From NCBI GenBank assembly GCA_965227295.1, contig OZ245742.1, positions 2,848,001 to 2,912,000 of the forward strand: a stretch of DNA of 64,000 nt, read 5' to 3'. The translations under genes were made by a program, and so were the position numbers. Below the pieces are notes generated by a model that was not told the origin of the DNA, ran no database searches, and saw only the letters and a program-made list of their open reading frames with translations. Shown here in pieces: positions 1,803-38,731 of the stretch; the stretch's first letter is position 1; each line of letters starts with the position of its first letter. The stretch comes from Leptonemataceae bacterium (lineage in GTDB: Bacteria; Spirochaetota; Leptospiria; Leptospirales; Leptonemataceae).

Positions 1803-3092
1803 ATGCGAAATCTCAAAACCGCCCGGGGCGTGCAGACGCTCCTCGCAACGGCAATCATCGCCGCGTCGACGGCGGCGCCCCTCAGCGCGCAAAGCATCGG
1901 CGAATTATTCCGGAAGCCCGGCGTCATGGGCGACTCCCTGAGCCAGGGATTCTACGGCGCCAGCGTCGAAAAGAAGACGCAAGATTGGGCGTATCCGGTC
2001 ATCGTCTCAAAACAGGCGAACGCTAACGTTACCTACAACGTACTTAAGGGCCCGTACGTCAACCTCGAGGACTTCCTCAACGGCGACTGCGGCGTCTTCT
2101 GCCTGGGATCGTCGATCCTCGGCGGCAACGAATCCACCGTGGGCACGCCCACGCACGCCGGCATCACCGGTGCCGATTACACGAACGCGCTCTACACCAG
2201 CGGCACGTGCGAAGACATCACCGCGACGAAGTGGGAGAAGGACTGGTACTGGAAGAAGTGGTACTGGTATACGTATCGCTGGGTGCAGGTGCAGGATTGC
2301 CAGGATCCGGATTCGTACCACGAGCACGGTCTGCGGAACTCCGGCACGCAGATGCAAATCATGGAAAAGGTCCAGCCGTCGTTCATCTTCGGCAGTGTCG
2401 GCGCGAACCACGTGCTCTGCACGGCCCTGGCCACGAACCTCGACTGTCTCGACATGAACCGCTGGAAGCGCGACTCGGCCGAGGCCTTCCGTCGTATGCG
2501 GAACATCTCCAGCGTGCGCGGCGGTGTGGTCTTCACCGTGCCGAACGTTACGGCCATCTACTACGTGGAGCCCTACACCGATCCCAACGGTCGTTCGAAC
2601 TACAGCGGCCTCAAGGCCTTCTACAACACCAGCGTGGGCAGCCCGTCCGAGGTGCTCGACGCGAACGAGGTCGGCCAGATCACGAGTTTCCTGACCACGA
2701 TCAACAACGATCTTAAGAGCTACGCCGCTTCCAACAACTACGCCATCGTCGATGCTAAGGTAATCTTCGACGACATTAAAGAAAACGGTCGCCGCATTGC
2801 GCACAGCAGCGGTTGGTCCCCGGGCAACGCCGGCGCCAACTGGCCGCTTCCCGGCAAGCCGGGCATCTTCGGCCTCGACGGCGTGCATCCGAACCGCTAC
2901 GGCCACGCGGTCCTCGCCAACGAGCTCATCGCCGCCATCAACGGCGAGTACGGCGTGTCGATCCCGAAAGTGGACGAGTACGCGGCCTGGTACTACGATT
3001 CGCTGAACCGCAATCCCATCGACCTGAAGGGTTACCTCAGCGACAACATCTTCGGCCAGATTATCAGCTTCATCATTAACATCTTCGTGTAA
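1803..3092 (+). CDS. Secreted SGNH/GDSL-family hydrolase (lipase/esterase)
   Basis: RBS AGGAG before ATG 1803, signal peptide (..PLSA|QS), block I GDSLSQG, block III GAN, block V DGVHP. Confidence 0.8.
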
Positions 3093-3118
3093 GATGTTAA
3101 TGTTCTTCACGAACCAAA

Positions 3119-3154
3119 GCCGCGCTCCGGGAAACCGGGCGCGGCCTTTCTTTT
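3119..3154. terminator. Rho-independent terminator between convergent genes
   Basis: GCCGCGCTCCGG-GAAA-CCGGGCGCGGC hairpin followed by CTTTCTTTT. Confidence 0.8.
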
Positions 3155-3169
3155 GCTGGAGTTCCGCGT

Positions 3170-5494
3170 TTATTGCAGCACGAATTCGCGCGAATAACCG
3201 GTGAACTTCTCGTAGCCCGTCCAGAAGAAGTACCAGCGCTTCGCGAGTCCGTTGTAACGAATGCGGTAGGTCCCCGGTTGCTGGTTGCGCACGAGCCAGG
3301 TGGCCGTGGCGAACGACTGATCCGACAGACTGCTGGAACCGCCGTTGCGTTCCCAGTCGAAGGCCGTGTAGGGATCGCCGTCCGTGGCGATGGTCTGCCA
3401 GTCGGAGCCGACTTTCTTCTGTACTTCAAGGAAGGTGTAGCTGTCCGGATCGTAGTACTGCGACAGCGAGCCGTCCATCTTCTTCACGAGCACCGTGCGT
3501 GGATGCGCGGCCTGGAAGCGCACGCTCACCGTGTCGTGGTCTTTCGAGTAGCTCGCCGCGGCGTCCTGCACGGCGTTGCCGAAGTTGCCGCCGTCCGTTA
3601 CGACTCCGTTGCTGGAAACCCAGGTTTCGATCAACTGCATCGTGGAAAGATCGGGCGGATTGGGTCCGGGATCGGCCGGTGTGTTTGCGGCCAGGTGGCC
3701 GGCCAGGCGATCCAGTTCCTGGGCTACGGCCGCCTCGGCGAACGGGCCGTAGATCGTAAAAGCGCCTTCGAAATGCTGCGCGGCGTACTCTTCGCGCGTC
3801 GTAAGGTACTGTCCGTAAGAGTTAGCCATGCCGGCGAGCACGAGATTCGCAACACCGGCGTTTGCAAGATTCGCGCTCACCGCGTCTTTGAGTCGGCGGC
3901 CGGTCATTGTCGTTACCTCGAACGGTGTGCCGAGAACACCGATGTCGCCGATGCGAATGATCTGCAACGGAATGACCACCGGTACGAACGGTGTGTTCGG
4001 ATTCGGAAACCAGAAATCATCCACCTCACCGACGGGCAACAGGGCGAACTTCTCTTTGTGACACTGGTCGTACTGATTCGTCTGTAACACGGCCGCGGCC
4101 AGCGGCCAGAGCGGTCCGAGGAACGCGGCAATGCCGTCGCCGTCGAGATCGTTGAAGTCGTACTTCGTTTGTACCCACTGTCCGTTTTCGTAGCTGTAGG
4201 TGTTCTTGATTTCACCCTCGGCCGCGAATTCCACGGGCGCGCCTTCTTCGTCGCCGGCCAGGAAACCCGCGCCGACCACGCCGACGCACGAGGCGGCCGT
4301 GGCGCTGTTGATCTCGTTATCCCAGGGCATGTAGTTCGTGCTGATGTAGCTGTTCGCCACGTCCACGTCGTTGAAGTTCACGTGACTGTGACGCACGTCC
4401 AGCGCGACCGGCACGCTCGTGTTCGCGGCGTTGTAGAGTTGCAGCGCCGCAACGGCCTGGCGTTCTCCGGCCACGATGGGATTTTCCTGGGCGTCGAGGC
4501 TTGCGTCGAGATCACTCGGCCGCAGGAACGGGAGCGTAATGTCCGTGGGATTCGGAATGTTCGGGCTTACATCGCCCATGGCGCCCTGAGCGAACGCGGC
4601 GACGAAGTTCCCGCCTTTCATTTTTTCGATCTTGTACGACGCGTAACCTTTGTTGTCGCCGTGAATGCGACGGTTCGCGATGTCCAGCGACGTTCCGTGT
4701 ACGGCGAACCAGTTGATGAGGCCGATCTCGGTACCGTCGAGCGCGTCGAAGCGCAGGAGCGTCATCTCCGCGTCGACGTTGTCCGAAAAACTGCCGGCGT
4801 CCGAGTTCTGGTCGTAGGCGATGGACGAACGATTGTAGGCGGCGTTGCTGACCGTGCCGGAAGCGTATTGAATGCTCGCGGCCTGGCGATTGTTGTAAGC
4901 ATCGATGATGGACTGCGTGATGCCGCGGACCACTACCTCGTAGTGCAGTTCGTCGAAGCCGGTGACGCCGTTGAACAGATTAAAGAGTGTATACCACGAG
5001 ATGTTCGACGTGGCCGCGTGGGTATGCGTGGCCGTGAGCATCACGTTTTCCGTATCGAACAATGAACCGTAGCCGAGGGTTGCCAGGCGTTTCACCACGC
5101 CGACCTTCACGCTCTGATACATGTGCAGTTGATCGGCGCTGACCAGGGCCACCATGCCCGTGCCCGGTTGTTCAATCACGAACGCGCGGCTGTACAGGCG
5201 CATGGCCAGGCCGGACATTTCGTCACCAGGGCTGTTGTAACCGGTGCTGGACTGAACGAACGGACCGGTGATGTCCGATTTTGCCGCGCCGACGTTGTAG
5301 GTAGACGGGCTTGTGGAAAGGCTGCGGCCCTGCAGGACCTGGCCTTGAATGATTTCCTGCGCAGCATCGACCGCGCCGGCATCGCCGCGCAGGGCGTTCT
5401 CTGTCGCGCCTTCACAGGCATTGAAGACGAGCAGGGCGCCGGCCGCAACGTAAACGCCGCGCCTTCGCAGGGATTGAAAAAACTGAGCTAACAT
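3170..5494 (-). CDS. Neutral/alkaline non-lysosomal ceramidase, probable lipoprotein
   Basis: Motifs RLYSRAF, ATHTHA (Zn), WFAVHGTS, GDNKGYA, GDVSPN, YLTTREEY..QHFEG, and a C-terminal Ig-like domain (GTYRIRY). Lipobox-like LVFNAC. Confidence 0.92.
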   Translation of the reverse strand: MLAQFFQSLRRRGVYVAAGALLVFNACEGATENALRGDAGAVDAAQEIIQGQVLQGRSLSTSPSTYNVGAAKSDITGPFVQSSTGYNSPGDEMSGLAMRLYSRAFVIEQPGTGMVALVSADQLHMYQSVKVGVVKRLATLGYGSLFDTENVMLTATHTHAATSNISWYTLFNLFNGVTGFDELHYEVVVRGITQSIIDAYNNRQAASIQYASGTVSNAAYNRSSIAYDQNSDAGSFSDNVDAEMTLLRFDALDGTEIGLINWFAVHGTSLDIANRRIHGDNKGYASYKIEKMKGGNFVAAFAQGAMGDVSPNIPNPTDITLPFLRPSDLDASLDAQENPIVAGERQAVAALQLYNAANTSVPVALDVRHSHVNFNDVDVANSYISTNYMPWDNEINSATAASCVGVVGAGFLAGDEEGAPVEFAAEGEIKNTYSYENGQWVQTKYDFNDLDGDGIAAFLGPLWPLAAAVLQTNQYDQCHKEKFALLPVGEVDDFWFPNPNTPFVPVVIPLQIIRIGDIGVLGTPFEVTTMTGRRLKDAVSANLANAGVANLVLAGMANSYGQYLTTREEYAAQHFEGAFTIYGPFAEAAVAQELDRLAGHLAANTPADPGPNPPDLSTMQLIETWVSSNGVVTDGGNFGNAVQDAAASYSKDHDTVSVRFQAAHPRTVLVKKMDGSLSQYYDPDSYTFLEVQKKVGSDWQTIATDGDPYTAFDWERNGGSSSLSDQSFATATWLVRNQQPGTYRIRYNGLAKRWYFFWTGYEKFTGYSREFVLQ

Positions 5495-5551
5495 GAGCTT
5501 TCTCCTGGGATTCGTAAAATTTCTCTGAACGTAAGTTTATATATGTAAACA

Positions 5552-6244
5552 TTAGTTGCCGGAGTCTTCGAGCAGCGGCTCGCGGGGCTCCAGGTGTTCC
5601 GGCAGGTAGCTGCGCAGGTAGGCCACGGCGGCCCGCCCGGCCTCGCGAATGAGATCGTTGGTGATCTCTCCGTGCTCGCGAAAGGACAGCCGGAAGACGG
5701 AATCGATGATGGCGAAGGCGATGGCCACGGACTGTTCGCGCTGCGGCCACACGGGAACGTGGAAGCGTTCTTCCAGGCGCTCCAGAACGATGCGGGCGAT
5801 CTTCGCATCCACGGACTTGCCGACGTCCCGGGTTTCGGTGACGCCGCCGTTCATGCCGTAGATCAAACGCATGAGGGCCGGGTCTTCCCGGGTAATCTGC
5901 GCGCCCACGCTGATGAGGCAGCGCAGATAATCCTGCCAGGTGCGAAAACGTCGCGCGTCCACCTCGGCCAGGGCGTCCGCGAGGACCTCGGCATGAAAGA
6001 GCCGCAGACCCAGAAAGAGCGCCCCTATATTAGGAAAGAAATGATACGCCGAAGCCCGGGGGATACCGGCCCGCTCGCAGGCCAGGGCAAACGTCACTTC
6101 TTCCGGCGGCAATTCCCGCAGCAATTCCCGGGTGGCGCTGAGCAGCTCCGTACGGCGGCTCCGGCCCTGCTGGGAGGTGAATTTGAACTTTTTCTGGCTC
6201 AAATCCGGCGAAAGCGAGGCGTCCATGATCCGTTCGTCGTTCAT
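5552..6244 (-). CDS. TetR/AcrR family transcriptional regulator
   Basis: N-terminal HTH (VTFALACERAGIPRASAYHFFPN). Divergent from the kinase operon. Confidence 0.92.
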   Translation of the reverse strand: MNDERIMDASLSPDLSQKKFKFTSQQGRSRRTELLSATRELLRELPPEEVTFALACERAGIPRASAYHFFPNIGALFLGLRLFHAEVLADALAEVDARRFRTWQDYLRCLISVGAQITREDPALMRLIYGMNGGVTETRDVGKSVDAKIARIVLERLEERFHVPVWPQREQSVAIAFAIIDSVFRLSFREHGEITNDLIREAGRAAVAYLRSYLPEHLEPREPLLEDSGN

Positions 6245-6249
6245 ATGAT

Positions 6250-6364
6250 CGACTTTTGTCGGGTTACGAGAAATATTTCAACCAGAAAACGGATAGAAGT
6301 CGGTTTTTTAATCGACAAAAGTTGATTTATGTGCAGAATCTGATCTGCGAGTCGACAAAAGTCG
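6250..6364. promoter_or_regulatory. Three palindromic operator-like sites CGAC-AAAA/TTTT-GTCG in a divergent promoter
   Basis: CGACTTTTGTCG at 6250-6261, CGACAAAAGTTG at 6313-6324, CGACAAAAGTCG at 6353-6364. Confidence 0.7.
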
Positions 6365-6387
6365 GGTCTCGCGATGCGGAGAAGGAT

Positions 6388-8655
6388 ATGGGCGGCACAC
6401 AGACAGCAAAGGCCATTCTGGCCGTGGATCTCGGGACCTCGGGCTGTAAGGCGGCCCTGGTGGATCGTTCCGGCGCGGTCCTCGGCTGGGCCTACGAACC
6501 CGTGGAACTGCACATTCTGCCGGAGCACGGTGCCGAGCAGAATCCGGAGGACTGGTGGCGGGCTCTCGTAACTTCTACTCGTCGCCTGTTAGCAGAAACC
6601 GGGACGTCGCCGACGGATGTCGCCGCGGTCGCCTGTTCGACCCAGGGCGAGTGCACCGTACCGGTGGACGCCGAAGGCAACGCGCTCATGAACGCCGTCC
6701 TCTGGATGGACATGCGCGGCGAAGATGCCGTTCGTCGTCGCGCGGGCGGGGCGATTCGCGTGGCCGGCTACGGCGCCACGAAGCTGTTGCGCTGGATTCG
6801 ACTTACCGGCGGGGCACCGGCGTTGTCCGGCAAGGACCCGGCGGGCCACATGCTGTTTATTAAAGAAGCGTTCCCCGACATCTACCGGCGTACCTACAAG
6901 TTTCTCAACGCCCTCGACTACATGAACCTGCGCCTTACCGGTCGGTTCACCGCCACACCGGACTCCATCCTCACCTCCTGGGTTACCGACAACCGCAAGC
7001 CCGATCGCATTGCCTATCATCCGTCCCTGCTCAAGCAGAGCGGCATCGATCCGGACAAATTCCCGGAACTCGTCCGCTGTACGGATGTCCTGGGCCCGCT
7101 GCAACCGGCGGCGGCGCAGGAACTCGGCCTCTCCCCGCAGACCGTCGTCGTCGCCGGCGCCATCGACACCACGGCCGCGGCCGTGGGCAGCGGGGCCGTG
7201 GGGGATTACGAACCGCACCTTTACATCGGGACGTCGTCCTGGATTGCCGCCCACGTTCCGTTCAAGAAGACCGACGTCGCCTCCGGTATCGCCTCGGTAC
7301 CCTGCGCGCTCTCGGATCGGTACCTGTTGATCGCCACGCAAACTTCCGCCGGTGGTAACTTAACGTACCTTAAAGAACGCATTCTGTATCATCAGGACGA
7401 ACTTCTACAGGATGAAAACGTTCCCGATGTCTACAAAATCCTGGATCGCATTGCCGAACGTACCCCGGCGGGCAGTCGCGGTTTGCTCTACACCCCGTGG
7501 TTGTACGGTGAACGCTGTCCGGTGGATGAGGGCACGCTGCGCGCGGGCCTGTTCAATCTATCCCTGGAGCATTCCCGGGAGGATGTGATTCGCGCCTTCC
7601 TCGAAGGTGTGGCCCTGAACACGCGCTGGATGTTGAAACCCGTGGAGCGTTTCCTCGGCCGTCCGGTGCGTTCCATCAACATTGCCGGCGGCGGCGGCGT
7701 TTCCCGGGTGTGGTGCCGCATCTTCGCCGACGTCCTCGGCGTTACCATCCGCCAGCTCAAAGAGCCCGTGCAGGCCAATGCCGTGGGCGCGGCCTGGATC
7801 GCCCGGGTGGGCCTCGGAGAAATGAGCTTCGCCGACGTCGCCGGTCGCACGGACATTCGCGAAGAGTTCGTACCGGATGCGGACAACGCTCCCGTATACA
7901 ATCAGGCCTTTCAAAACTTTCAGGAGATTCACCGCCGCCTCGGCCCACTGTATCGAAAGATCAACGCGCCGGAACGCACCAAAACTATGAAACACGCAAA
8001 CAATCCTTCAATTGATATTAGCAAGTTCGACGCCGTGCGCCGCGAAGTCGTGGCGGCGTGTCTGCGCCTGGCCGACATGGGATACCTGGCCGGCATCGGC
8101 GGGAACATGGCCGTGCGCGCCGGGCAGGGCTGCTTCGCCGTGACGCCGTCCGCCGCGGACTACTACAACCTGACGCCCGAGGACATCTGCATCCTGCGCC
8201 TGGACAACCTGGAAAAAATCGCCGGGGACATGCAGCCCTCCGTGGAGAGCGGCCTGCATGCGGCGCTGCTGAACCGCCGCCCGGACCTGAATGCCAGCAT
8301 CCATACGCACCAGCCCGTGGCGAGCGGGGTGGCTTTGCTCGCGGTGCCGCTGCCGGTCGAAGACCCCGAGGCCCGCCAGGCCCTGGGCGATACGATCGTG
8401 CTCACGCCGTACGCCCCGTCCGGCACGACCTGGCTTGCGAAGTCCTTCGCGAAAGTTCTGCGCGACGACGTGAACGGCTATCTGCTTCGCAACCACGGCG
8501 TGGTCTGCGGCGGGCCGGATCTGGAGCAGGCCATCCGCAACGTGGGCTACATCGAGTCCGAGTCCGCCCGATTCTTGCGTGAAGAAATCATCCGGGCCCG
8601 GGGCGCGGACGCCGCCGATAACGCGACGCGCCGGGCCCTGGAAGCCGTTTCGTAA
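6388..8655 (+). CDS. FGGY-family carbohydrate kinase fused in frame to a class II (FucA-like) aldolase
   Basis: Kinase motifs AVDLGTSGCKA, LYIGTSSW, PWLYGERCP. Aldolase part from ATG 7987 has GIGGNMAVR, PSVESGLH, HTHQ, LLRNHG. RBS GGAGAAGG precedes ATG 6388. Confidence 0.88.
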   Translation: MGGTQTAKAILAVDLGTSGCKAALVDRSGAVLGWAYEPVELHILPEHGAEQNPEDWWRALVTSTRRLLAETGTSPTDVAAVACSTQGECTVPVDAEGNALMNAVLWMDMRGEDAVRRRAGGAIRVAGYGATKLLRWIRLTGGAPALSGKDPAGHMLFIKEAFPDIYRRTYKFLNALDYMNLRLTGRFTATPDSILTSWVTDNRKPDRIAYHPSLLKQSGIDPDKFPELVRCTDVLGPLQPAAAQELGLSPQTVVVAGAIDTTAAAVGSGAVGDYEPHLYIGTSSWIAAHVPFKKTDVASGIASVPCALSDRYLLIATQTSAGGNLTYLKERILYHQDELLQDENVPDVYKILDRIAERTPAGSRGLLYTPWLYGERCPVDEGTLRAGLFNLSLEHSREDVIRAFLEGVALNTRWMLKPVERFLGRPVRSINIAGGGGVSRVWCRIFADVLGVTIRQLKEPVQANAVGAAWIARVGLGEMSFADVAGRTDIREEFVPDADNAPVYNQAFQNFQEIHRRLGPLYRKINAPERTKTMKHANNPSIDISKFDAVRREVVAACLRLADMGYLAGIGGNMAVRAGQGCFAVTPSAADYYNLTPEDICILRLDNLEKIAGDMQPSVESGLHAALLNRRPDLNASIHTHQPVASGVALLAVPLPVEDPEARQALGDTIVLTPYAPSGTTWLAKSFAKVLRDDVNGYLLRNHGVVCGGPDLEQAIRNVGYIESESARFLREEIIRARGADAADNATRRALEAVS

Positions 8656-8692
8656 TTACAACATCAAACTAACTTAGACTGAGGAAAATCTA

Positions 8693-10177
8693 ATGACCAC
8701 CGCAACCATGGAAACCACGGCGCCGTCCGCGCCGGAAAAAACGCAACAGTACGCCATTTCGGAGTGGCACAACACCGAGGAGATCCTGGCCCGACTCAAG
8801 GAACTGACGAAGGCCCCGCTGCGGCCCATTCGCCGCGACAAAATGAACGAGGTCCTCGAGTACTTCGAAAAAAACTGCCGGCGTTCGAAGGCCATCGCCG
8901 AAGAAGCGGAGCGCTACATTCCCGGCGGCGTACAACACAACCTGGCGTTTAACTATCCCTTTCCCCTGGCCATGGACCGCGCCGAGGGCGCACACCTGCG
9001 CGACGTCGACGGCAACGAGTACATCGACTTCCTGCAGGCCGGCGGGCCCACGCTGCTCGGTTCGAACTATCAACCGGTGCGCAAAAAAATCATAAAACTT
9101 CTAAATGAATGCGGGCCGGTCACCGGTCTCCTGCACGAGTACGAACACAAGCTTGCGGAAATCGTAAGCCGGCACATGCCCGGTGTGGAAATGTTTCGCA
9201 TGCTCGGTTCCGGCACCGAGTCCGTCATGGCCGCCATTCGTCTGGCCCGGGCGTACACCGGAAAGAAGCAGGTCATCAAAATCGGCGGCGGTTATCACGG
9301 CTGGTCCGATCAAATGGTCTACGGCATGCGCATTCCCGGAACCGGACGGCGCGAAGCCGCGGGCATTCCGCGCGGGGCGACGGCGCATACGCAAGAATGT
9401 TTTCCCAACGACATCGGCGCGCTCAAGCGCAAGCTCTGGTTGAATCGTTTGCGCGGCGGCACCGCGGCGGTGATCGTGGAACCGCTGGGTCCGGAGAGCG
9501 GCACGCGTCCGGTCTACTTCGACTACAACCGCCAGTTGCGCGAGGTCTGCGATCAGTTCGGCGCGTTGTTGATCTTCGACGAAGTCGTCACCGGCTTTCG
9601 CCTGGGCCTCGGCGGGGCCCAGGGTTACTTCGGAGTGAATCCTGATTTGACCGTCTTCGGCAAGTGCCTCACCGGCGGTTATCCCATGGCGGGCGGCGTC
9701 GGCGGTCGGCGCGAAGTGATGATGCTCTTCGCCGGCGGTATCAGCTCCATGGGCAAGCGCGCCTTCGTCGGCGGTACCCTTTCCGCGAACCCGCTGTCCT
9801 GCGCGGCCGGTTACTATTCGATCCAGGAAATGGAGCGCACCAACGCCGCGGTGAAAGCCGGCCGCGCCGGGGATCGCCTGTGTCGCGGACTGCAGGAAAT
9901 CGTCGAGCGCCTGAAGCTGCCCTACGTCGTTTATAACCAGGGCTCCATCGTGCACCTCGAAACTTCCGGTGTGTTGCTGTTAAGCATGCGCAATCCCATT
10001 AAGGTGCTGCGCGAAGCCAAAGAGCGCAAACACATGATGGAAGAGATGGGCGCGGCTTACTCGGCGCACGGCATGATCACCCTGGCGGGCAGTCGGATCT
10101 ATACCAGCATGGCCGACACGGACGACATCATCGACGAGGCGTTGAATCGTTTCGAAAGCGTTCTGCAAATGGTCTGA
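8693..10177 (+). CDS. Class III PLP aminotransferase (glutamate-1-semialdehyde aminomutase-like)
   Basis: IPGGV, DVDGNEYIDF, SGTESVMAAIR, YHG, FDEVVTGFR, FGKCLTGGYP (PLP lysine), GTLSANPLS. Confidence 0.9.
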   Translation: MTTATMETTAPSAPEKTQQYAISEWHNTEEILARLKELTKAPLRPIRRDKMNEVLEYFEKNCRRSKAIAEEAERYIPGGVQHNLAFNYPFPLAMDRAEGAHLRDVDGNEYIDFLQAGGPTLLGSNYQPVRKKIIKLLNECGPVTGLLHEYEHKLAEIVSRHMPGVEMFRMLGSGTESVMAAIRLARAYTGKKQVIKIGGGYHGWSDQMVYGMRIPGTGRREAAGIPRGATAHTQECFPNDIGALKRKLWLNRLRGGTAAVIVEPLGPESGTRPVYFDYNRQLREVCDQFGALLIFDEVVTGFRLGLGGAQGYFGVNPDLTVFGKCLTGGYPMAGGVGGRREVMMLFAGGISSMGKRAFVGGTLSANPLSCAAGYYSIQEMERTNAAVKAGRAGDRLCRGLQEIVERLKLPYVVYNQGSIVHLETSGVLLLSMRNPIKVLREAKERKHMMEEMGAAYSAHGMITLAGSRIYTSMADTDDIIDEALNRFESVLQMV

Positions 10178-10205
10178 ACAAAGTACGCAACAAAGGGCAA
10201 ACGTT

Positions 10206-10898
10206 ATGAACTCCACCAACACACTCGCAACCGTCGGCGCCCCGGCCGGACTCTCGCATCCGGAGGTGCGCGCAGGCCTGTTGTCTTCGCTTCGCCGTCT
10301 GCACGATAAGGGGCTGTGCGGCCCCGCCGAAATGAGTCTGTCCCTGCGCATCCCCGGCACCGAGGACATGGCGCTGTTGGTTACGGCCCCGGGAGACGGG
10401 CAGGCGCAGGCCGAGGACATTCGCATCCTTTCCCGGGCGACGCAGTACGACGACGAACAGGCGGACATCCATGCGACGATCTATCGCATGCGTCCCGATG
10501 TCGGTGCCGTGGTCCGCAACCGCCCGCGTTGGGGCAGCGTGCTGCACGATGTAAAACAACCCATGCCGGCGATCTTCGACGAACAGGCCCGGCAGATGGG
10601 CGCTTCGGTGGAACGCCTCGACGGCCGGCTGCAACGTTTGCGTCGCGGCGCGAACGTCTTTCTGTACGGCGGCGACGTGTTGTGCCTGGGCATGACTCGC
10701 GACCGCAGCGTCTTCACCTGCGAGCTGCTGGAGAAGTGCGCCGAGGCTTACGTCCTGGCCACGGCCACGGGGCGCCGCTTGCGGCGCATCCCCTGGTTCG
10801 TTCGACTCATTGCCGGGCGGCGTCTCTTAAAAGACGAGCGCAAGTCCGCGGCGGCTTACGCCCGGGGCGAGGTGCCCACGGGATTTACGGCTTACTGA
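10206..10898 (+). CDS. Class II aldolase/adducin-like protein with degenerate metal site
   Basis: SLSLRIPG, IHATIYRMRPDVGAVV, IFDEQARQMG. The HxH and NHG motifs are replaced by RNR and YGG. Confidence 0.75.
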   Translation: MNSTNTLATVGAPAGLSHPEVRAGLLSSLRRLHDKGLCGPAEMSLSLRIPGTEDMALLVTAPGDGQAQAEDIRILSRATQYDDEQADIHATIYRMRPDVGAVVRNRPRWGSVLHDVKQPMPAIFDEQARQMGASVERLDGRLQRLRRGANVFLYGGDVLCLGMTRDRSVFTCELLEKCAEAYVLATATGRRLRRIPWFVRLIAGRRLLKDERKSAAAYARGEVPTGFTAY

Positions 10899-10924
10899 AA
10901 ACGCGCAACGCAACGGAGACGATC

Positions 10925-12121
10925 ATGCAAACTACTAACTATCGCTGGGTGGTACTTACGGTCTTTACGCTCTCGGCCGGCATTTCACAGATGCTCTGGC
11001 TGAACTTCGCGCCCCTGCTGTCGATGATCCAGGAACGCTACGGCGTCAGTGAACTGGAGGCGTCGCTGTTGATCCTGGTCTTCCCGGCGATCTATGTCGT
11101 GTTGTCGCTCCATTCCGGAGCCATGATCGATCGGCGCGGTTATCGTTTCACCGTGGGGCTCGGCGGAATCATCATGGCGGTGTTTTCGTGCGTCCGCATT
11201 TACGATGCGAGCTTTACGGCGCTGCTGATCGGCCAGACCGGTATCGCCGTGGCCCAGCCCTACGTCGTCAACGGAATCTCCAAACTCGTGGCGGATTGGT
11301 ACGAAGAAGAACACCACGGCCTCGCCACCGGCATCGGAACCATCGGCATGTTTTTGGGCATGGCCGTGGCACTCGCGCTGACACCGGCCCTGGTATCGGC
11401 GGTGGGACTGCAACGAACCATGATCATCTTCGCCCTGATGTCCGGCTTCTCGGCCGGGGCCTTCCTGCTGCTCGCGCGCGAGAACCCCGCGCAAAACGAG
11501 TCGGCGGGTACTTTCGGCGAGGGCGCCTTCGCCCCCTTGTTTCAAAACGGCAACCTGATTCTTTTGTTCGTCCTCTCACTGCTCGCCCTGGGATTTTTTA
11601 ACGGCCTCACTACCTGGCTCGAACCGATCCTCGCCGTGCACGCGAATCTCGACGCGGAGCAGGCCGGCCTCGCCGGCGGCATGTTGATCATCGGCGGCAT
11701 CGTCGGTTCGGCGGTGCTACCGGCGCTGTCGGACGCGTTTCGCCGGCGCAAGCCGTTCCTGTTGATCTCGGCCACGGCCAGCATCATACTGACCCTGCCG
11801 CTCTGCACTACCACTAACTTTACCTGGCTGCTTGTTTACGCCGGTCTCATGGGATTCTTTTTTCTGCCCGGATACGCCCTCTTGTTCGCCATGACCGAAG
11901 AACATGCCGGTGCCGCCCATGCCGGCAGCGCCGCGGGCGTGTTGATGCTCGCCGGGAACGGCGGCGGGGTCGTGGTGGTGCTCTTAATGGAGGCGGTGCG
12001 CGGCGGTGACAGTTCCTGGATCAACGCCATTTATTTGATGATGGCATTGATGGCGGCCGCGGTGCTGCTCGCGCTCAAGCTCGGCGAGTCCCTCGGTCGC
12101 GGTCCGGCTCACGACGCCTGA
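10925..12121 (+). CDS. MFS transporter
   Basis: About 12 hydrophobic helices, motif A-like GAMIDRRGYR and ALSDAFRRRK, RBS GGAG. Confidence 0.9.
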   Translation: MQTTNYRWVVLTVFTLSAGISQMLWLNFAPLLSMIQERYGVSELEASLLILVFPAIYVVLSLHSGAMIDRRGYRFTVGLGGIIMAVFSCVRIYDASFTALLIGQTGIAVAQPYVVNGISKLVADWYEEEHHGLATGIGTIGMFLGMAVALALTPALVSAVGLQRTMIIFALMSGFSAGAFLLLARENPAQNESAGTFGEGAFAPLFQNGNLILLFVLSLLALGFFNGLTTWLEPILAVHANLDAEQAGLAGGMLIIGGIVGSAVLPALSDAFRRRKPFLLISATASIILTLPLCTTTNFTWLLVYAGLMGFFFLPGYALLFAMTEEHAGAAHAGSAAGVLMLAGNGGGVVVVLLMEAVRGGDSSWINAIYLMMALMAAAVLLALKLGESLGRGPAHDA

Positions 12122-12141
12122 CCCGTCTCACGGAACGTGCG

Positions 12142-13224
12142 TCACGGTGCCCGGCGTTTTCGCCACTGACCGGGGGACATGCCGGTGCGGGACTTGAACA
12201 ACGCCTGGAACGCGGACATGGAACGAAAGCCGCAGGCCAGGGCGACGTCGAGCACACTCTCTTGCGGATGCTCGACTAACCTCTGCTCCGCGGCGATTAA
12301 GCGGTACTCGTTGACGAAGGCGTTGAAGTTCCGACCGAACTCGCCGTTGATGAATTCCGACAACTGCGCCTGGTTCAGGCCCATGTAATCGGCCAGGTCG
12401 CCCAGGTTCAGATCCTCGTTGAGATAGACCCGTTCCACGACCATGAGGCGTTCCAGTTCGGCGCGCAGCGGCGCCGGATCGCGTTCGCCCAGGCGCGAGC
12501 GGCGCTTCCGGTTCTCGCGGATGCTCGCGGCAAACCGTTCCGTGATGTGCGGCCGGCCCGCACGCAAGACGAGCAGCAAACCCTGGAAAATCGAATGCGA
12601 CCAGAGAAAAAGCCAGGGCTTCCAGTAGATGTCCAGGTTCCGAAAAATCTCGAGAACGACGGCCGTGAGAATGATCAGAGTCCCCGCCGATAAAAACAGC
12701 TTTTGCCGTGACGATAGCCGCGGGCGGCCCGGGTAAATGTACCGCACGAAGATCCACACCAGGTAGACACCGGCAACGATGACACCGAGGGTATTGAGGC
12801 CGCGCAGAATCAGCACCGCGTTCATGCTCGCATCCATTTCGACGAAGCGCAGTCGAGTCTCCGGTTCTACCACGGCCAGGTACAACCAGGTCGTCGCCGC
12901 CAGCAGCCCGGGCAACAGGTGGCGCAACTCGCGACGGAACTCGATGGTTTTCTCCGGCTGCAGGAGTTCGCGGCAATAGAGATACAGCAGCGGTCCGCTC
13001 CAGAACACGAACGGGATCGTTGCGAACTTAACGTACGGAAACATCGGCATGAGTCCGGCCTTCACGAGAGAACCTTCCAGATGCCAGCACGCCGCGCACA
13101 AGGAGTAGGCCGCGAAGTAGCGGGCCCTCGGCTCGCGCAAATTCAACAAACTTGCCGCCGCATGCATCAGGGCCAGCGGCACGCCGGAGAGCAGGACGAT
13201 CTGATGACTGTCGAGGGCGATCAT
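12142..13224 (-). CDS. AraC-family regulator with multi-TM N-terminus
   Basis: Hydrophobic N-terminal half. C-terminal LNLGDLADYMGLNQAQLSEFIN...FNAFVNEYR...VALACGFRSMSAF. Confidence 0.9.
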   Translation of the reverse strand: MIALDSHQIVLLSGVPLALMHAAASLLNLREPRARYFAAYSLCAACWHLEGSLVKAGLMPMFPYVKFATIPFVFWSGPLLYLYCRELLQPEKTIEFRRELRHLLPGLLAATTWLYLAVVEPETRLRFVEMDASMNAVLILRGLNTLGVIVAGVYLVWIFVRYIYPGRPRLSSRQKLFLSAGTLIILTAVVLEIFRNLDIYWKPWLFLWSHSIFQGLLLVLRAGRPHITERFAASIRENRKRRSRLGERDPAPLRAELERLMVVERVYLNEDLNLGDLADYMGLNQAQLSEFINGEFGRNFNAFVNEYRLIAAEQRLVEHPQESVLDVALACGFRSMSAFQALFKSRTGMSPGQWRKRRAP

Positions 13225-13294
13225 GACGAACGCGCCAGCCTTACGGTTCCTGGATCATGATCAAGGATTTTCAGGTACTGCCTGGATCATGATC
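13219..13294. promoter_or_regulatory. Tandem repeats with palindromic core GATCATGATC (AraC-site candidate)
   Basis: CCTGGATCATGATC at 13249-13262 and 13281-13294 (32-bp spacing), plus a partial GATCATGAC at 13219-13227. Confidence 0.6.
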
Positions 13295-13352
13295 GAAGGT
13301 GCGCCGCGCCCGGAGTTCGGTTAGGATCTTCGCATCTGCACAGGAGATGACT

Positions 13353-14225
13353 ATGAAGATCTTACAATTTTTTCACAGGTACGCACAGCTCTGGTTTCTC
13401 GCAGCGATGATCGGCTACGGCCTCGCCGCGATACAGGCGGGCTGGAACCTGAAGATTGCCGCTCCGGTCGGCGCCGTGCTCGCGGTGCTCGTGCTTTCGA
13501 TGTTGGAGCGTCTGGCTCCGGCGCGGCGCGGTGAAAACGACAACGCCGGAGAAACGGCGCGGCATTTCTTTTTCTTCGGCCTCGGCGCCGTGATGGATAA
13601 CCTCGGACGCGCCTTGGCCGTATTCACCGCGGTGAGTCTCGCCGGCGGCGAACGATTTCTGGACCTTCCGTTGTGGCTGGAATTGATTGCGGCCGTCTAC
13701 ATCGCCGAGTTCTTCGCATACTGGTTCCATCGGCTGAGCCATCGCGAGGGCTGGCTCTGGTCCGTACACAGCATCCATCATTTGCCGGAGAAGGTGAATC
13801 TTACGAACAACTTTCTCATGCATCCGCTAAACATATTTTTTCTGAAAGTTATGCGGGCGACGCCGCTGCTGCTGCTCGGTTTTTCCCAGGAGGCCGTCTT
13901 CCTGCACGGCCTGTTCTCCCTGGCGGTCGCGTTTTCGGTGCACGCGAACACCGGCGGACGTCTCGGTGTCTGGAATTACGTGATCGGCACGGCGGAGCTG
14001 CATCGCATGCATCACAGCGTCGATCCGGACGAAGCCGGCAATCACGGCACTGTCGTTCCGTTGTGGGATCAGATCTTCGGTACGTTTCGCTACAATGCGC
14101 ACGGCGAGCCGGCACAGATCGGCGTGGTGCGGGAAGAGCGGGGCCGGTATCCCGTCACGATCGCCGGCATGCTTGTGTATCCGTTGCGCTGGTCTTCGTT
14201 GATTGCGGGGTGGCGCCTCCGCTGA
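13353..14225 (+). CDS. Sterol desaturase / fatty acid hydroxylase family protein
   Basis: Histidine boxes HRLSH, HSIHH, HAN, HRMHH; WDQIFGT; RBS AGGAG. Confidence 0.9.
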   Translation: MKILQFFHRYAQLWFLAAMIGYGLAAIQAGWNLKIAAPVGAVLAVLVLSMLERLAPARRGENDNAGETARHFFFFGLGAVMDNLGRALAVFTAVSLAGGERFLDLPLWLELIAAVYIAEFFAYWFHRLSHREGWLWSVHSIHHLPEKVNLTNNFLMHPLNIFFLKVMRATPLLLLGFSQEAVFLHGLFSLAVAFSVHANTGGRLGVWNYVIGTAELHRMHHSVDPDEAGNHGTVVPLWDQIFGTFRYNAHGEPAQIGVVREERGRYPVTIAGMLVYPLRWSSLIAGWRLR

Positions 14226-14232: not shown

Positions 14233-17200
14233 TCAAAACGCCGGCCCCGGTTGCGCCGTGCTGCGATTCGTGAAACTTCCGTCGCCGAGTTGGCCGAAGT
14301 CGTTCTTGCCCCAGCAGAACAGATCACCGTCGCTCACCGCGCAAACCTGGCCGCCGCCCAGGCCGAAACCGCTGATGTTTGCGAGCGGCACGAGGGAAGC
14401 GTCGAGAACCGTAGACGGAATCTCACGAAACGTTACGGCGTTCACGCCTATCTGTCCCGATTGATTGTTGCCCCAGCAACGGCCGGTACCGTCGTTCAAA
14501 ACCGCGCAGTTGTTGCGGGCGTTCGTGTAGAGTCCGCTTACGTTCGCGCCGAGCCCCGTCGGTTGCGTTGGCGTAATGGCAAAAAACGCCACGCTCGCGT
14601 CGCCGATCTCGTAGTTGCTGTTCGAACCCCAGCAATACACGGCGTCGCCGACCAGGGCGCAACTGTGCAGCGTTCCCGCCGTCACGTTCGTGGCGCCCGT
14701 GAGTCCGGGAACGGGGCCCGTGGGTACGGTGCGCGGAGTCGTGGTGCCGTCGCCGAGTTGCGCCGCCAGGTTGTTGCCCCAGCAATAAACCTCGCCGCCG
14801 TCGACCGCGCAGACGTGGACCGTGCCCGCGCCGATGTCGCTGACGCTGTTCGAAAGGCCGACCACGGGCAACGGAGTCGTCACGGCTTCCAGCGGCGAGC
14901 CGACGCCCAGCCCGCCGGCGGAGTTGTCGCCCCAGCAATGGGCCGTGCCGCTAACAATGGCGCAGCTAAAGTTACCACCCGGAGAAACCTGGCTGACCCC
15001 GCTCGTGAGCCCGCTCACCTGCACCGGCGTGTTGCGGTCCGTCGTGGTGCCGTCGCCGAGCTGGCCGTTGTTGTTCTGGCCCCAGCAACGCAGCGAGCCG
15101 TCGTTCAGAATCGCGCAGGCGTGATTCTGTCCGGCCTCGACCCGGACGACGTTCGCCGTGAGCCCGCTGACCTGCACGGGCACGGCCGAGTTTGTATTCG
15201 TGCCGTTGCCGAGTTGACCGAAGTTGTTCTGGCCCCAGCACTTCGCGGCCCCGTCCACGACGGCACACGAAAAATTCGTGCCGAGTTTTACCGGGAGATC
15301 GGCCGGTGCGGTGGTCGGCGGGCCGGCGGGATTGCCGCACAGTTGCACGGTGCCGGTGTTCGTCACGCTGCGCGTCCAGCCGCCGGGAATGCTTTCGACG
15401 CTCGTCTGCCGTCCGTTCGCGTCGTACTCGATGATGAGCGTGTTGTTGATGGTGCGTTTCTTCGGCAGCGTCGCGCCGCCGTCGTACTCGTACACGATGG
15501 GAATCGTAATCGGTCCCGTTGTAAACGTTACCGATTCCGGAAAACCGTTCGCGTCGTAATCGCCGTAAGTGATCACGTTCGGATTGCCGTTCTGATCCAT
15601 GGCGACGAGACGATTCTGCGTATCCACGGCGAAGGTGTTGTTGATGTTCACATCGGGATTCGGCGGATTGCTGATGGTAAAACTCGCCGCGTCACCGCGG
15701 AACCAGGCGAAGCTGCCGTAGCCGGCGCACTCGCCGCTGAACGTATCGCAGACCAGGTTCGGCAACGGCCCATCGAAGAGCGAGGCCTGCGCCGCGTCGA
15801 TGTTCGGATATGCATACGTTTCGGTGATGACGCCGGACGGCGTGTTCGTAACGCACTCAATGCTGAGCGGCCCTGTGGCCGTGCACGAACTGAACGGCAC
15901 GCCGTCGAGGGCGATGTTTTGCGGAAAGTCCACGCACACCGTCGTCGCCGAAGTCGTGTTCACCGTCGCGATAAACGGCGTAAGATGACTCGTGCGCGCA
16001 ATGATCATACCGTTCTCGGTGTCCGCCGAGGTTTCTTCCACGGGCAGCCAGTTGTCGCCGGGCGCGTTGTAATAAAAGACCGTGAACTCTTCCGGCAGGC
16101 CGGCGTCGATCAGCGCGTCGCGATCGTACGGAAAACGAATTTCGGCGAGATCGCCCGGGAACGTAATCGAACCGCCGGCCACGGGATCGATGTCGTAAAC
16201 GGCGCTCACGGGAATATAGGTTTCGTTGATGCGCGCGGGCACCGGGCGCAGGGACTCGTTCACGGTAAAGTCCGCGGGATGAAAGCCGGGCGGCGGCACG
16301 AACGCGGGTTCTGCCGAGAATCGCGTCACCGCCGAGGCGACCACGGCGTTCACGTCCGGGAAGTTGTACCAGTCTTTGCGATCGGCACCGGCGGACATGT
16401 ACCAATCGTCGAAGAATTCGTAGGCGGTGTGAATGTTCGTGCGTTCGTACATCCAGCGCCAGTCCACGGGCACGAGCAACGCCCAGGGAAAACCGTCGGC
16501 GTCCAGGTAGAGGTCGTTGTCGTTGCCGTCAAAGAAACGGCCGGCGAAGTGGACGTCGCGGTTCGTGTTCTTCACGTGCAGAAACAAATCGTACGGCGCG
16601 GCCCCCAGGTCGTCCTTCGAAACCGGCGCGGCCGGGTTCACTTCCAGTTCGAACAAATCGCCCGCAACAAAGTCCTGACCGCGATGGGCGTTGGATTGTG
16701 AGATGGTCCGGTCGCTGCGTTCCGTAAGTGCAATTGCGTGGAAGTTAGCCGGGCTGCCCGCGGTCGTCGCGAGCAGGTTGCCTTCCGGGTCGAAGCGGCG
16801 CACGGAGTAGTCCGCGTTTTCCAGCGGCAGATTCAGTTTCAGCACGTGATTGTAGCCGGCGGCCTTCGCCACGTGGCGGTACGAACCGAGGATGCGCACG
16901 ACTTCCCCCGCGGCGTTCAGGTGTTCTTCCTGGTTGAATTGCAATACGTAGTCGTTGAAGTCGGCGTCGCCCTGGTTCGGATACAAATCCTCGAAGGCGA
17001 CGGTGAAGCGTCCGCCGTCCGCCGGGAAGCGCAGCAGCGTCGCGCGCGCGGGATCGTCCGGGAAATGATCGGCGTCGTCGGTTATGCCGTCGCCGTCGCG
17101 GTCCGCGAGCGTCGGCGTGGTGTTGCGCGCGCGCCGCACGGCCGTGGTGTTCATCACGATCGTGCGATCCACGGTGCTCAGATCGGCGACCTCCAGCGGC

Positions 17201-18359: not shown

Positions 18360-19232
18360 ATGCCGAAACACGAAATCTCCGTCTCGCCGCCCCGGGCCGC
18401 CGATCTGGATACCCAGCGCCACGTCACCTCACGCACGTACGAATCCTATTGCTGGGAAGGTCGCTACGCCCTGCTTGCCGGGCAGGGCTACGGGAACGAG
18501 CGCTTAATCGAAGAAAAAATTCTGTTACGGCCCGTGGGCACGTCCATGCGCTTCTTTCGCGAGCAGATGCCCGGCGCCGCGCTGAAGGTGCGCACGGAGC
18601 TGATTCCGGGGGACGGAGCGGACCTGGCCTTCGTGCAGGAGGTCGTCGAGGCCGACAGCGGGGCGACCGCCTGCCGCATCGTCACGCACGTCCGTGGTGA
18701 GGTCGACGGCGCCGCGCAGCGTCTCGCGCTCGCGCCCACTTCGGCAACCGGGGAGGACGACGCCTGGACGGCGGATCCGTTAACCGCTCCTCCGAAGAAG
18801 TTTGCCGGTGACAATCAACGCGTCAGCGCGCCGGCGATCATGCTCTACAGTGAACGCACGCCGTTTTTCGATCATCCCCCCGCGGCGTTGTGGCGCATCG
18901 CCGAGGAAGGGCGCTGGCACTTCAGTTATGCCGTCGGCCTGGATCAAAAGAAGATCTACGAGACCGACACGGTAACGTTCTTCACGTCGGCGAACTTCGA
19001 GTTTTACCGCATACCCCGCGGCGGGGAGGAGATGATCATCCACACCTGGATCGAGAGCATCGAGAAAATTCGCTGTTTCATGCGCCAGGATATCGAGACG
19101 AAACAGGGCGAGCTGTTGTTTTCCGTGCGCGAGGAACAGTTGATCGTGAGCCTGAGCCGCCGCCGGCCGCGCAAGGCCCCGCCGGAGTTTGTGGGAATGA
19201 TCGCGGATTATATGGAAACAGCGCCGGCTTGA
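18360..19232 (+). CDS. Double hot-dog acyl-CoA/acyl-ACP thioesterase
   Basis: RAADLDTQRHV..YESYCWEGR and a second repeat YSERTPF..AEEGRW. Confidence 0.75.
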   Translation: MPKHEISVSPPRAADLDTQRHVTSRTYESYCWEGRYALLAGQGYGNERLIEEKILLRPVGTSMRFFREQMPGAALKVRTELIPGDGADLAFVQEVVEADSGATACRIVTHVRGEVDGAAQRLALAPTSATGEDDAWTADPLTAPPKKFAGDNQRVSAPAIMLYSERTPFFDHPPAALWRIAEEGRWHFSYAVGLDQKKIYETDTVTFFTSANFEFYRIPRGGEEMIIHTWIESIEKIRCFMRQDIETKQGELLFSVREEQLIVSLSRRRPRKAPPEFVGMIADYMETAPA

Positions 19233-27907: not shown

Positions 27908-27924
27908 CGGTTCGAACGGGCGGA

Positions 27925-28023
27925 TCAGTCCTCGGGGGAGAGGAACCGCAGAACGGCGACGATGGCGCCGAAGCCGAGGGTGAAGGCCATCAGGGCCAGA
28001 AACGAAATCATGCCTGCACTCAT
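27925..28023 (-). CDS. Candidate 32-aa single-pass membrane microprotein
   Basis: MSAGMISFLALMAFTLGFGAIVAVLRFLSPED*. GC3-rich codons; ends 17 nt upstream of the thioesterase start. Confidence 0.45.
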   Translation of the reverse strand: MSAGMISFLALMAFTLGFGAIVAVLRFLSPED

Positions 28024-38685: not shown

Positions 38686-38731
38686 GATTGTTTCTGGACG
38701 AACTTAGCGCGGCCTGAGACAACGACGGCGT

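Follow-up and report, generated by a model that had tools for sequence, protein, structure and literature searches.

A candidate lyase-independent route for sphingoid-base catabolism at a TetR-controlled locus of a Leptonemataceae bacterium

Introduction

It is not settled by which routes bacteria dispose of sphingoid bases. In the sphingosine-1-phosphate lyase route, which operates in eukaryotes and some bacteria, a long-chain-base kinase acts together with a lyase that depends on pyridoxal phosphate (PLP). Another precedent is FumI, the aminopentol aminotransferase of fumonisin-degrading bacteria (structure 6hbs), a class III enzyme by which a sphingoid-like base loses its C2 amine; we know of no kinase or aldolase partner of FumI. 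Here, we analyze a stretch of 64,000 nucleotides, called the window below, from a Leptonemataceae bacterium of the phylum Spirochaetota (contig OZ245742.1 of GenBank assembly GCA_965227295.1, positions 2,848,001 to 2,912,000 of the forward strand). In it, a ceramidase gene lies beside genes for an FGGY-family kinase fused to a class II aldolase, a class III aminotransferase and an aldolase-like protein that we call AldL.

A further described system is that of Pseudomonas aeruginosa. Its regulator SphR binds sphingosine, dihydrosphingosine and phytosphingosine (PMC5150637). The SphR operator is given as two copies of the half-site TGNCCSNNRNNSNCC that are 6-8 bp apart (PMC3900636) or, alternatively, as an element of 15 bp + 7 bp + 15 bp (PMC5150637). 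Another study states that the product of sphingosine metabolism by SphBC could not be identified (PMC11893366).

In the open full-text literature (subscription journals lay outside the scope of this search), we found no description of a transaminase-kinase-aldolase route for sphingoid bases. With a probability of roughly 0.5, we propose that the genes in the window belong to such a route, namely a lyase-independent catabolism of 4-hydroxy (phytosphingosine-type) sphingoid bases to dihydroxyacetone phosphate (DHAP) and a fatty aldehyde.

Organization of the locus and proposed pathway

On the evidence of its layout, the locus is a TetR-controlled pair of divergent operons: tetR-ceramidase, and kinase::aldolase-aminotransferase-AldL followed by a transporter of the major facilitator superfamily (MFS) (Table 1). 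The tetR and ceramidase genes are co-oriented, with tetR upstream, and the kinase operon lies on the opposite side of tetR. Because the ceramidase gene begins 57 bp behind tetR, both divergent operons face one spacer, and the ceramidase is probably co-transcribed behind tetR. The same order of genes (Cer-TetR<>Kin-Ald-AT-AldL-MFS) is found again in three other Spirochaetota genomes, at loci that we number L001, L003 and L004. Since this order recurs, and since all copies of the palindrome described below sit in the TetR-kinase spacer, the arrangement is not due to chance. The closest relative of the locus is L001, from a Leptospirales metagenome-assembled genome (MAG), with a kinase identity of 72%.

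All genes named in a preliminary description of this DNA are present, in the arrangement that it described, with the ceramidase co-oriented behind TetR and a divergent kinase operon. These and our other family assignments for the window were made in Pfam or NCBIfam scans that covered 12 + 41 = 53 open reading frames (ORFs). The same description's claim that the window lacks sphingosine-1-phosphate lyase holds among these 53 ORFs, in which we found no PLP lyase or decarboxylase family of that type.

The proposed pathway would begin with the surface ceramidase, which would free a sphingoid base from ceramide, and the MFS transporter would then import the base. The class III aminotransferase would convert the C2 amine to a ketone, forming a long-chain ketose, and the FGGY kinase would phosphorylate C1, a step that may instead precede transamination. 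The FucA-type aldolase would then cut between C3 and C4, yielding DHAP and a fatty aldehyde. AldL would be the aldolase's partner, contributing to the aldehyde side of the active site. A retro-aldol reaction of this kind requires a 4-hydroxyl group, so the natural substrate would be phytosphingosine-type bases, or sphinganine after C4-hydroxylation. A His-box hydroxylase encoded nearby would add the 4-hydroxyl group required for the cleavage of sphinganine-type bases. As deduced from gene context, this chemistry is plausible. The pathway would be a variant of a familiar type, namely a ketose-1-phosphate aldolase route with a transaminase at its entry and an amino-lipid as its substrate.

Conservation of the cassette

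We conducted a species-level scan (one genome per species) in which the query was an alignment of 21 kinases. At least 601 stretches matched and at least 578 were confirmed, which places kinase relatives in no fewer than 578 species genomes. We kept the best 80 of these at least 578 loci; several are short contigs, and counts in the 80 loci are therefore lower bounds. When all ORFs of these loci were searched with the window's proteins using phmmer, homologues were detected of the aminotransferase (72 loci), the aldolase (57), the window-type MFS transporter (44), AldL (18), TetR (5) and the ceramidase (3). Domain tables revealed four further aldolases that share an ORF with another gene, i.e., an aminotransferase in L039, L064 and L078, and an MFS transporter in L014; with these, the aldolase is present in 61 of the 80 loci. 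Single-linkage clustering of stop-to-stop ORFs served as a guide only, as it merged unrelated families via overlapping ORFs.

The preliminary description had reported a kinase-aldolase fusion. A single ORF does hold all three domains, but the likely start codon is at 6388 and not the TTG at 6256. In all 80 loci the kinase and aldolase are separate ORFs, and among the 120 matches listed in our searches, the aldolase Pfam domain is joined to kinase domains only in the window's own protein. Unfused kinase homologues among the matches listed are 500-588 residues long, are 55-71% identical to the kinase and come from many phyla. A DNA alignment across the junction was too divergent to reveal the origin of the fusion, which may be a sequencing artefact. 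Fusions of aldolase and aminotransferase occur in another Leptospirales MAG (L039:11436-13790) and in two Actinomycetes MAGs (L064:916-3288 and L078:6732-9098). Because a kinase-aldolase fusion in the window and aldolase-aminotransferase fusions in two unrelated lineages connect the three enzymes, they are tied into one pathway. Judging from these gene-level associations, the kinase, aminotransferase and aldolase are a working unit, to which we refer as the cassette.

In a FastTree phylogeny of 81 kinases (those of the 80 loci and the window), two clades are separated with 100% local support. Clade A (20 rows) contains the window and members of Spirochaetota, Acidobacteriota and Pseudomonadota, with the gene order Kin-Ald-AT-AldL. 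Clade B (61 rows) is mostly from Chloroflexota, with further members from Binatota, Hydrogenedentota, Nitrospirota, Cryosericota, Actinomycetota and others; its gene order is Ald-AT-(MFS)-Kin, without AldL. Neither a sugar isomerase nor a sugar-binding regulator is conserved with the cassette in the loci and their scanned flanks.

Sphingolipid-type genes near the cassette

We surveyed the flanks of the loci by scanning 129 of 325 representative proteins and 66 clade-A proteins with Pfam; the other 196 representatives were compared by phmmer with 34 chosen queries, and for this reason lipid genes of other families could be missed in clade B. A neighbour of a sphingolipid-type hydrolase family was found in 10 of the 20 clade-A rows, with three enzyme types distributed over three phyla. 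One type is the ceramidase of Spirochaetota. A second is an 850-873-residue protein of glycoside hydrolase family 5 (GH5) that adjoins the cassette in Burkholderiales (L010 and L057; a third case, L048, was assigned by phmmer only). In L010, this gene is directly next to the cassette in the same orientation, and the best solved relatives of its product are endoglycoceramidases (6jyz, 315 bits; endoglycoceramidase II, 2osw, 88 bits). For both L010 and L057, the sole NCBIfam match is endoglycoceramidase I, far under its cut-off. L057 additionally encodes an alpha-galactosidase, and TonB-dependent receptors are present in 4 loci. The third type is a PI-PLC_C1 enzyme (445 bits), which in Acidobacteriota (L043 and L063) lies upstream of the cassette together with an MFS transporter and a TetR_C_22 regulator, and for which a link to inositol-phosphoceramide is compatible with the data.

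Other neighbours in clade A are also of lipid-related types. Rhizobium wuzhouense (L066), which is counted as the tenth of these clade-A rows, encodes an ALO-type FAD oxidase and an Ala_racemase_N protein, i.e., the domain pair of P. aeruginosa SphC and SphD; SphD and SphC are described with the Ala_racemase_N and ALO-type oxidase domain families (PMC5150637). The same locus has an MdlD-like aldehyde dehydrogenase, an MFS transporter, a FadL/TodX porin and an AraC regulator, and another MdlD-like aldehyde dehydrogenase occurs in L074. In Duganella (L015), an FA_hydroxylase and an alpha/beta hydrolase are in one operon with an MFS transporter and a TonB receptor. In clade B, sphingolipid-type neighbours were found in only 2 of the 61 rows: L020 has a PI-PLC_C1 enzyme and a patatin, and in L035 an endoglycoceramidase-like GH5 gene (2osw, 139 bits) starts at the end of the aminotransferase gene and is followed by genes for MFS_2, glycoside hydrolase family 1, MFS_2 and the kinase.

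For the window's clade, this comparative context lifts the sphingoid-base reading to about even odds. The preliminary description had proposed this reading and had tied it to linkage of the operon with ceramidase or lipid genes. Sphingolipid-type neighbours accompany half of clade A, and the SphR-like half-sites and the kinase's distance from xylulokinases (both below) also speak for the proposal. The ceramidase itself, however, is rarely linked (3 of 80 loci), and the proposal is thus only partly supported.

Several other genes were observed near the cassette. On the ceramidase/TetR side of three loci (L003:3668-5991, L004:3133-5456 and L011:6208-8686), there is an upstream valine-pyruvate transaminase-like gene (506 bits, NF006964) together with a conserved 345-residue protein that matched no family; the transaminase-like enzyme might supply or recycle the amino acceptor. 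Downstream in the two Acidobacteriota loci (L043:14452-18078 and L063:11910-15440) are a NagX/HGSNAT-like transmembrane glucosamine N-acetyltransferase and a 790-residue protein with a weak match to an oligosaccharide amylase, a pair that would fit the head-group processing of glucosamine-bearing glycolipids. A Chloroflexota MAG carries an ORF with three LIM domains and a DA1-like domain, both families being typical of eukaryotes (L012:5964-7229), and in an Anaerolineaceae MAG a TIR_2 domain is fused to an FGE-sulfatase domain near the cassette (L032:14769-16229).

Regulators and candidate operators

The palindrome TCRAC-N4-GTYGR occurs at three distinct sites in the 64 kb of the window, where the mean number expected by chance is 2.19, and all three sites are in the 140-bp TetR-kinase spacer. 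The homologous spacer contains two such sites in L001 and one in L039. We describe the palindromes between 6249 and 6365 as operator-like. TetR homologues occupy the equivalent position in L001, L003, L004, L011 and L039, and TetR_C_22 regulators adjoin the cassette in the Acidobacteriota loci L051, L063 and L074.

In eight loci, of Burkholderiales and Rhizobium, an AraC regulator is next to the cassette, and its Arabinose_bd domain was confirmed by Pfam in 6. The SphR half-site given above has 8 exact matches in the 4483 bp of spacers flanking these AraC genes, whereas the background rate of the loci themselves (214 matches in 1.37 Mb, both strands) predicts 0.70; because the AraC-flanking regions are homologous, the sites represent perhaps three independent lineages. 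Exact half-site operators are present in five of the eight loci (L010, L015, L019, L022 and L066). In the same five loci, a conserved site, TGGCCGRAAAWGACC, lies upstream of a divergent MFS operon, and in L010, L015, L019 and L066 the kinase gene is preceded by variants that have 0-1 mismatch from the SphR consensus. The full two-repeat form (15-7-15) was found, with 1-2 mismatches, only in the two Duganella loci, L015 and L019.

No AraC protein with an Arabinose_bd domain is encoded in the window. Its own AraC-type regulator, which was absent from the gene list of the preliminary description, has a hydrophobic, membrane-like N-terminal stretch of ~250 residues in place of a soluble ligand domain. 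The divergent pair that it forms with the FA_hydroxylase gene is common to the window and L001 (L001:3035-4192). The regulator may be a membrane-embedded lipid sensor.

Identities of the enzymes

The preliminary description had allowed that the kinase might be a plain xylulokinase. This is ruled out by its score with the XylB model TIGR01312 (247 bits; trusted cut-off 380.25), by the lack of xylose genes alongside it and by its aminotransferase partner in 72 of the 80 loci; among the flank proteins scanned, none matched the xylose isomerase family.

For the aldolase part, the best model is ribulose-1-phosphate aldolase (101 bits), with fuculose-phosphate aldolase also near, and it scores under every FucA equivalog cut-off (e.g., 91 vs 264 bits). 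A ribulose-1-phosphate aldolase as best model fits the D-erythro 3,4-diol, which is the stereochemistry of the phytosphingosine-derived ketose. The Glu, HxH and third-His columns are retained in 62 of 62 catalytic aldolase rows, including that of the window. In E. coli FucA, the Glu is the base, and the HxH and third His are the zinc ligands.

The closest solved structures to the aminotransferase are glutamate-1-semialdehyde aminomutase (GSAM; 233 bits), D-phenylglycine aminotransferase (180 bits) and the aminopentol aminotransferase 6hbs (97 bits). Assignment as HemL, the GSAM of haem biosynthesis, was ruled out, since the protein scores 275.9 bits with TIGR00713 (cut-off 527 bits) and the loci have no haem context. 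Assignment as a FumI-like aminotransferase was rejected because the match to 6hbs is only 97 bits.

AldL was listed as an aldolase-like protein in the preliminary description, which is apt for its FucA-type fold, but the metal ligands have been lost. The HxH pair is missing in 19 of 19 AldL rows (a single His is left in 2), the Glu column lacks Glu in all 19, and the third-His column has His in 4. Since 33 columns, including the motifs FDEQ, E..EKCA and IP, are invariant across 18 sequences of three phyla, AldL is, to judge from its sequences, not decaying. A structural model of AldL has a predicted local distance difference test score (pLDDT) of 81.5, and Foldseek aligned it to FucA structures with template modelling (TM) scores of 0.61-0.67 and a probability of 1.00.

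When AldL was modelled in complex with the aldolase domain, the score was 0.89, and that of the best control was 0.01; this is a level that 116 of 157 solved complexes attain, compared with 2 of 215 mismatched pairs. Class II aldolases have been solved as homotetramers, so the good score may reflect likeness to them. Three runs had at least 94% of contacts in common, with a partner pLDDT of at least 85. The predicted contacts join AldL residues 123-126 and 173-177, which include the invariant FDE and E..EK, with aldolase residues 97-108 and 157-159, which surround the metal ligands and include His97 and the His159 region. The model thus predicts that AldL joins the aldolase as a second subunit at the active site of the latter, and we infer that AldL is a non-catalytic partner completing the aldehyde side of that site.

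The ceramidase aligns over both of its halves with the neutral ceramidase structure of P. aeruginosa (2zws, 289 bits). It is under the cut-off of the NCBIfam equivalog NF041649 (283.3 vs 1200 bits), and is therefore a divergent member of the neutral/alkaline ceramidases. Its N-terminal stretch ends in ...VFNAC, and the protein is probably a lipoprotein.

The hydroxylase is OlsE-like according to NCBIfam (86 bits), though under the cut-off of 475. Members of the FA_hydroxylase family are also encoded in L001 and in the AraC-controlled uptake operon of Duganella L015. Because this family includes the eukaryotic sphinganine C4-hydroxylases, the window's hydroxylase and its counterparts in L001 and L015 are candidates for C4-hydroxylation of sphingoid bases.

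Alternative explanations

It is important to consider the points that weigh against a sphingoid-base pathway, whose whole basis is gene context. A ceramidase is found by the cassette only in L001, L003 and L004, i.e., in 4 of 81 rows when the window is counted, all from Spirochaetota. In 59 of the 61 clade-B rows, phmmer and the Pfam survey described above detected no ceramidase, endoglycoceramidase-like GH5 or PI-PLC_C1 protein, and the clade-B flanks covered by Pfam are heterogeneous in content. For the PI-PLC_C1 enzymes, the substrate may simply be phosphatidylinositol. Among the window's scanned ORFs there is no aldehyde dehydrogenase, acyl-CoA ligase or beta-oxidation gene. Although the proposed chemistry requires a 4-hydroxyl group, L001 and L015 are the only ones of the 80 loci that, like the window, have a hydroxylase gene close to the cassette. 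The closest characterised relatives of the kinase are sugar kinases, its nearest models being xylulokinase and gluconokinase; those of the aminotransferase are GSAM-type enzymes of small molecules; and we know of no FGGY kinase or FucA-type aldolase with a proven lipid substrate. The solved structures closest to the window's MFS transporter (58.9 bits) are the choline/ethanolamine transporters FLVCR1/2, which carry small polar amines. For the L015 MFS transporter, no solved relative was found. The correspondence to the P. aeruginosa proteins is tentative: a search with the Duganella AraC protein gave at least 120 matches, those listed being AraC proteins of 55-96% identity from Burkholderiales, Rhizobiales and one Pseudomonas sp., none of them labelled SphR, and of the at least 120 matches to the L066 oxidase, those listed are all at least 58% identical, the named ones are nearly all from Rhizobiales (two from Gynuella), and no P. 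aeruginosa row is among them. This oxidase has no visible Tat signal, whereas SphC is periplasmic (PMC11893366).

Many of these points would be explained if the cassette degraded a soluble amino-polyol, amino-alcohol or amino-sugar alcohol, with the amine converted to a ketose, the ketose to its 1-phosphate and the latter to DHAP and a short aldehyde. The lipid-related neighbours would then be a coincidence or a secondary recruitment. We consider this unlikely overall but a serious rival, because clade B is nearly devoid of lipid context, the MFS transporter is FLVCR-like, the enzymes' relatives act on small molecules and there are no downstream lipid genes. It also accords with a cassette that is self-contained and has an MFS gene in most loci (window-type in 44 of 80), and with an aldolase nearest to ribulose-1-phosphate and fuculose-phosphate aldolase models. 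Against it stands the fact that three unrelated sphingolipid-type hydrolases, in three phyla, accompany 10 of the 20 clade-A rows, adjacent to the cassette in L010, and that one lies inside the operon in L035. The SphR-type half-sites in front of the kinase operon also speak against it, as do the nearby FadL proteins, TonB receptors and MdlD-like aldehyde dehydrogenases. The cassette has neither a conserved sugar isomerase nor a conserved sugar-binding regulator, and we could name no abundant natural soluble 2-amino-1,3,4-triol. Perhaps a soluble substrate applies especially to clade B, and clade A is a later adaptation that gained AldL.

It is also conceivable, but in our view improbable, that similar chemistry serves another hydrophobic 2-amino-polyol, such as fumonisin- or AAL-type aminopolyols, bacterial sphingoid or sulfonolipid bases, or amino-bacteriohopanepolyols, or that it detoxifies antimicrobial sphingoid bases. 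The solved aminopentol aminotransferase is a detectable relative (97 bits), and many of the carrier genomes derive, to judge by their records, from metagenomes of peat, fen and soil; the aminotransferase, however, is far closer to GSAM (233 bits), and the nearby ceramidases and endoglycoceramidase-like proteins suggest ceramide-based lipids of the ordinary kind. As to detoxification, the sphBC genes of P. aeruginosa guard against sphingosine toxicity (PMC11893366). The formation of DHAP, in contrast, implies a gain of carbon, though a protective role is still compatible with it. A synthetic direction, in which the aldolase would condense DHAP with a fatty aldehyde and the amine would come from the transaminase, so that a sphingoid-like base arises without serine palmitoyltransferase, strikes us as very improbable indeed. 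Class II aldolase reactions are reversible, and the window has the hydroxylase and an acyltransferase-type gene (62020-62991). In that direction, however, the kinase would be superfluous, the cassette has no conserved N-acyltransferase or ceramide synthase partner, and it is linked to degradative enzymes (ceramidase, endoglycoceramidase-like GH5), to uptake systems and to regulators of the kinds that respond to substrates, both repressors and activators.

We also considered a more ambitious form of the sphingoid-base proposal, i.e., a widespread lyase-independent pathway that comprises transamination, C1 phosphorylation by an FGGY kinase, cleavage by a heteromeric aldolase (a catalytic subunit and the metal-free AldL) and a C4-hydroxylase feeding sphinganine-type bases into it. 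We put this forward tentatively, with slightly less conviction than an even bet would imply.

Other features of the window

Table 1. Genes and sites of the locus, with positions in the window and supporting domain matches
Feature	Position	Strand	Domain matches and remarks
Secreted GDSL/SGNH-like protein	1803-3092	+	Lipase_GDSL 20.1 bits, under gathering score 23.6; signal-peptide-like N-terminus
Neutral ceramidase	3170-5494	-	PF04734 383.6 bits (cut-off 32.1); PF17048 94.9 bits (cut-off 30.5)
TetR-family repressor	5552-6244	-	TetR_N and TetR_C_22 (Pfam)
Three operator-like palindromes, TCRAC-N4-GTYGR	6249-6262, 6312-6325, 6352-6365		Divergent promoter region
FGGY kinase::class II aldolase, one ORF	6388-8655 (ORF from 6256)	+	FGGY_N 127.9 bits; FGGY_C 81.2 bits; Aldolase_II 131.6 bits
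Kinase part; aldolase part	~6388-7980; ~8020-8655	+	In-frame fusion
Class III (GSA-aminomutase-like) aminotransferase	8693-10177	+	Aminotran_3 174.9 bits
AldL, aldolase-like protein	10206-10898	+	Weak Aldolase_II match, 25.2 bits (cut-off 22.2)
MFS transporter	10925-12121	+	MFS_1 157.2 bits
AraC-type regulator	12142-13224	-	HTH_18 73.7 bits, residues 277-357; divergent from hydroxylase
Membrane His-box hydroxylase (FA_hydroxylase family)	13299-14225	+	PF04116 95.3 bits

The G+C content of the region is ~62%, and Leptospira-type families (DUF1564, Lcl_C and LruC) are also present in the window according to Pfam and NCBIfam. The preliminary description had placed an SGNH lipase at the edge of the cluster. 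A GDSL-like protein is indeed present there, and its look-alikes in the ESM Atlas are GDSL lipase clusters (score 0.96), but its Pfam score is below the cut-off and none of the 80 related loci has a homologue of it, so its membership in the system is doubtful.

Adjoining the hydroxylase is a gene for a 1140-residue predicted lipoprotein (14233-17655, - strand) with LruC (TIGR04456), DUF4842 and DUF4114 matches and C-terminal RCC1 repeats. Two 4HBT_2 thioesterase-like genes lie at most 15 kb from the cluster (18360-19229, + strand; 27461-28186, - strand), for which a link to acyl-chain handling is possible. Farther away, a sugar-type ABC transporter set of two ATPases, permeases and a solute-binding protein is interspersed with genes for an ADP-ribosylglycohydrolase, a GGDEF protein and a methyl-accepting chemotaxis protein (35168-44318). 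A tandem pair of DUF2147 genes (59744-60695, - strand) and an HNH endonuclease ORF close to the end of the window (63527-63844) were also observed.

Comparison with known systems

If the sphingoid-base proposal is true, FGGY kinases and FucA-type aldolases would have their first lipid substrate known to us. The pathway would also account for the use of sphingolipids of plant, fungal or animal origin by Leptospirales, soil Burkholderiales, Acidobacteriota and possibly Chloroflexota. It would be relevant to how sphingolipids from plants and fungi are turned over in soil and peat, and to the feeding of Leptospira-like bacteria on host or environmental lipids. The proposal involves a defined set of three or four enzymes that could be tested in vitro with commercial substrates. 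Carriers of the cassette that are cultured and harmless include Duganella sp. SG902, Rhizobium wuzhouense W44, Chitinimonas naiadis and Ornatilinea apprima P3M-1.

Like the SphR regulon of P. aeruginosa (cerN, the sphA porin and sphBCD), the locus in the window appears to co-regulate a ceramidase with genes that would remove the freed sphingoid base. Among related loci, the AraC operators match the SphR half-site and L066 has the SphC/SphD domain pair; the window itself, however, has TetR and not SphR. The enzymes also differ: those here are all cytosolic (a transaminase, an FGGY kinase and a class II aldolase), whereas P. aeruginosa uses a periplasmic oxidase together with a cytochrome c and a PLP aldolase. 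The proposed products are accordingly distinct, with DHAP and an aldehyde in place of glycine and an aldehyde.

With the sphingosine-1-phosphate lyase route, the proposed pathway would share phosphorylation at C1 followed by carbon-carbon cleavage into a fatty aldehyde and a small phosphorylated fragment. The lyase cuts between C2 and C3 and releases phosphoethanolamine, whereas here a metal aldolase would cut a 2-keto intermediate between C3 and C4 and release DHAP. The proposed route would require the 4-hydroxyl group, and the window's 53 scanned ORFs hold no PLP lyase or decarboxylase family. FumI, as a class III aminotransferase acting on a sphingoid-like base, is a precedent for the proposed C2 transamination, but the window's aminotransferase is distant from it (97 bits against 233 for GSAM).

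The FucK-FucA and RhaB-RhaD pairs and ribulose-1-phosphate aldolase resemble the cassette in the combination of an FGGY kinase with a class II aldolase whose metal and Glu columns are retained. In contrast to FucK-FucA and RhaB-RhaD, the ketose would here be supplied by a transaminase, no isomerase being conserved with the cassette. Moreover, the window's enzymes are under every equivalog cut-off, and in clade A a metal-less paralogue, AldL, is encoded alongside the aldolase.

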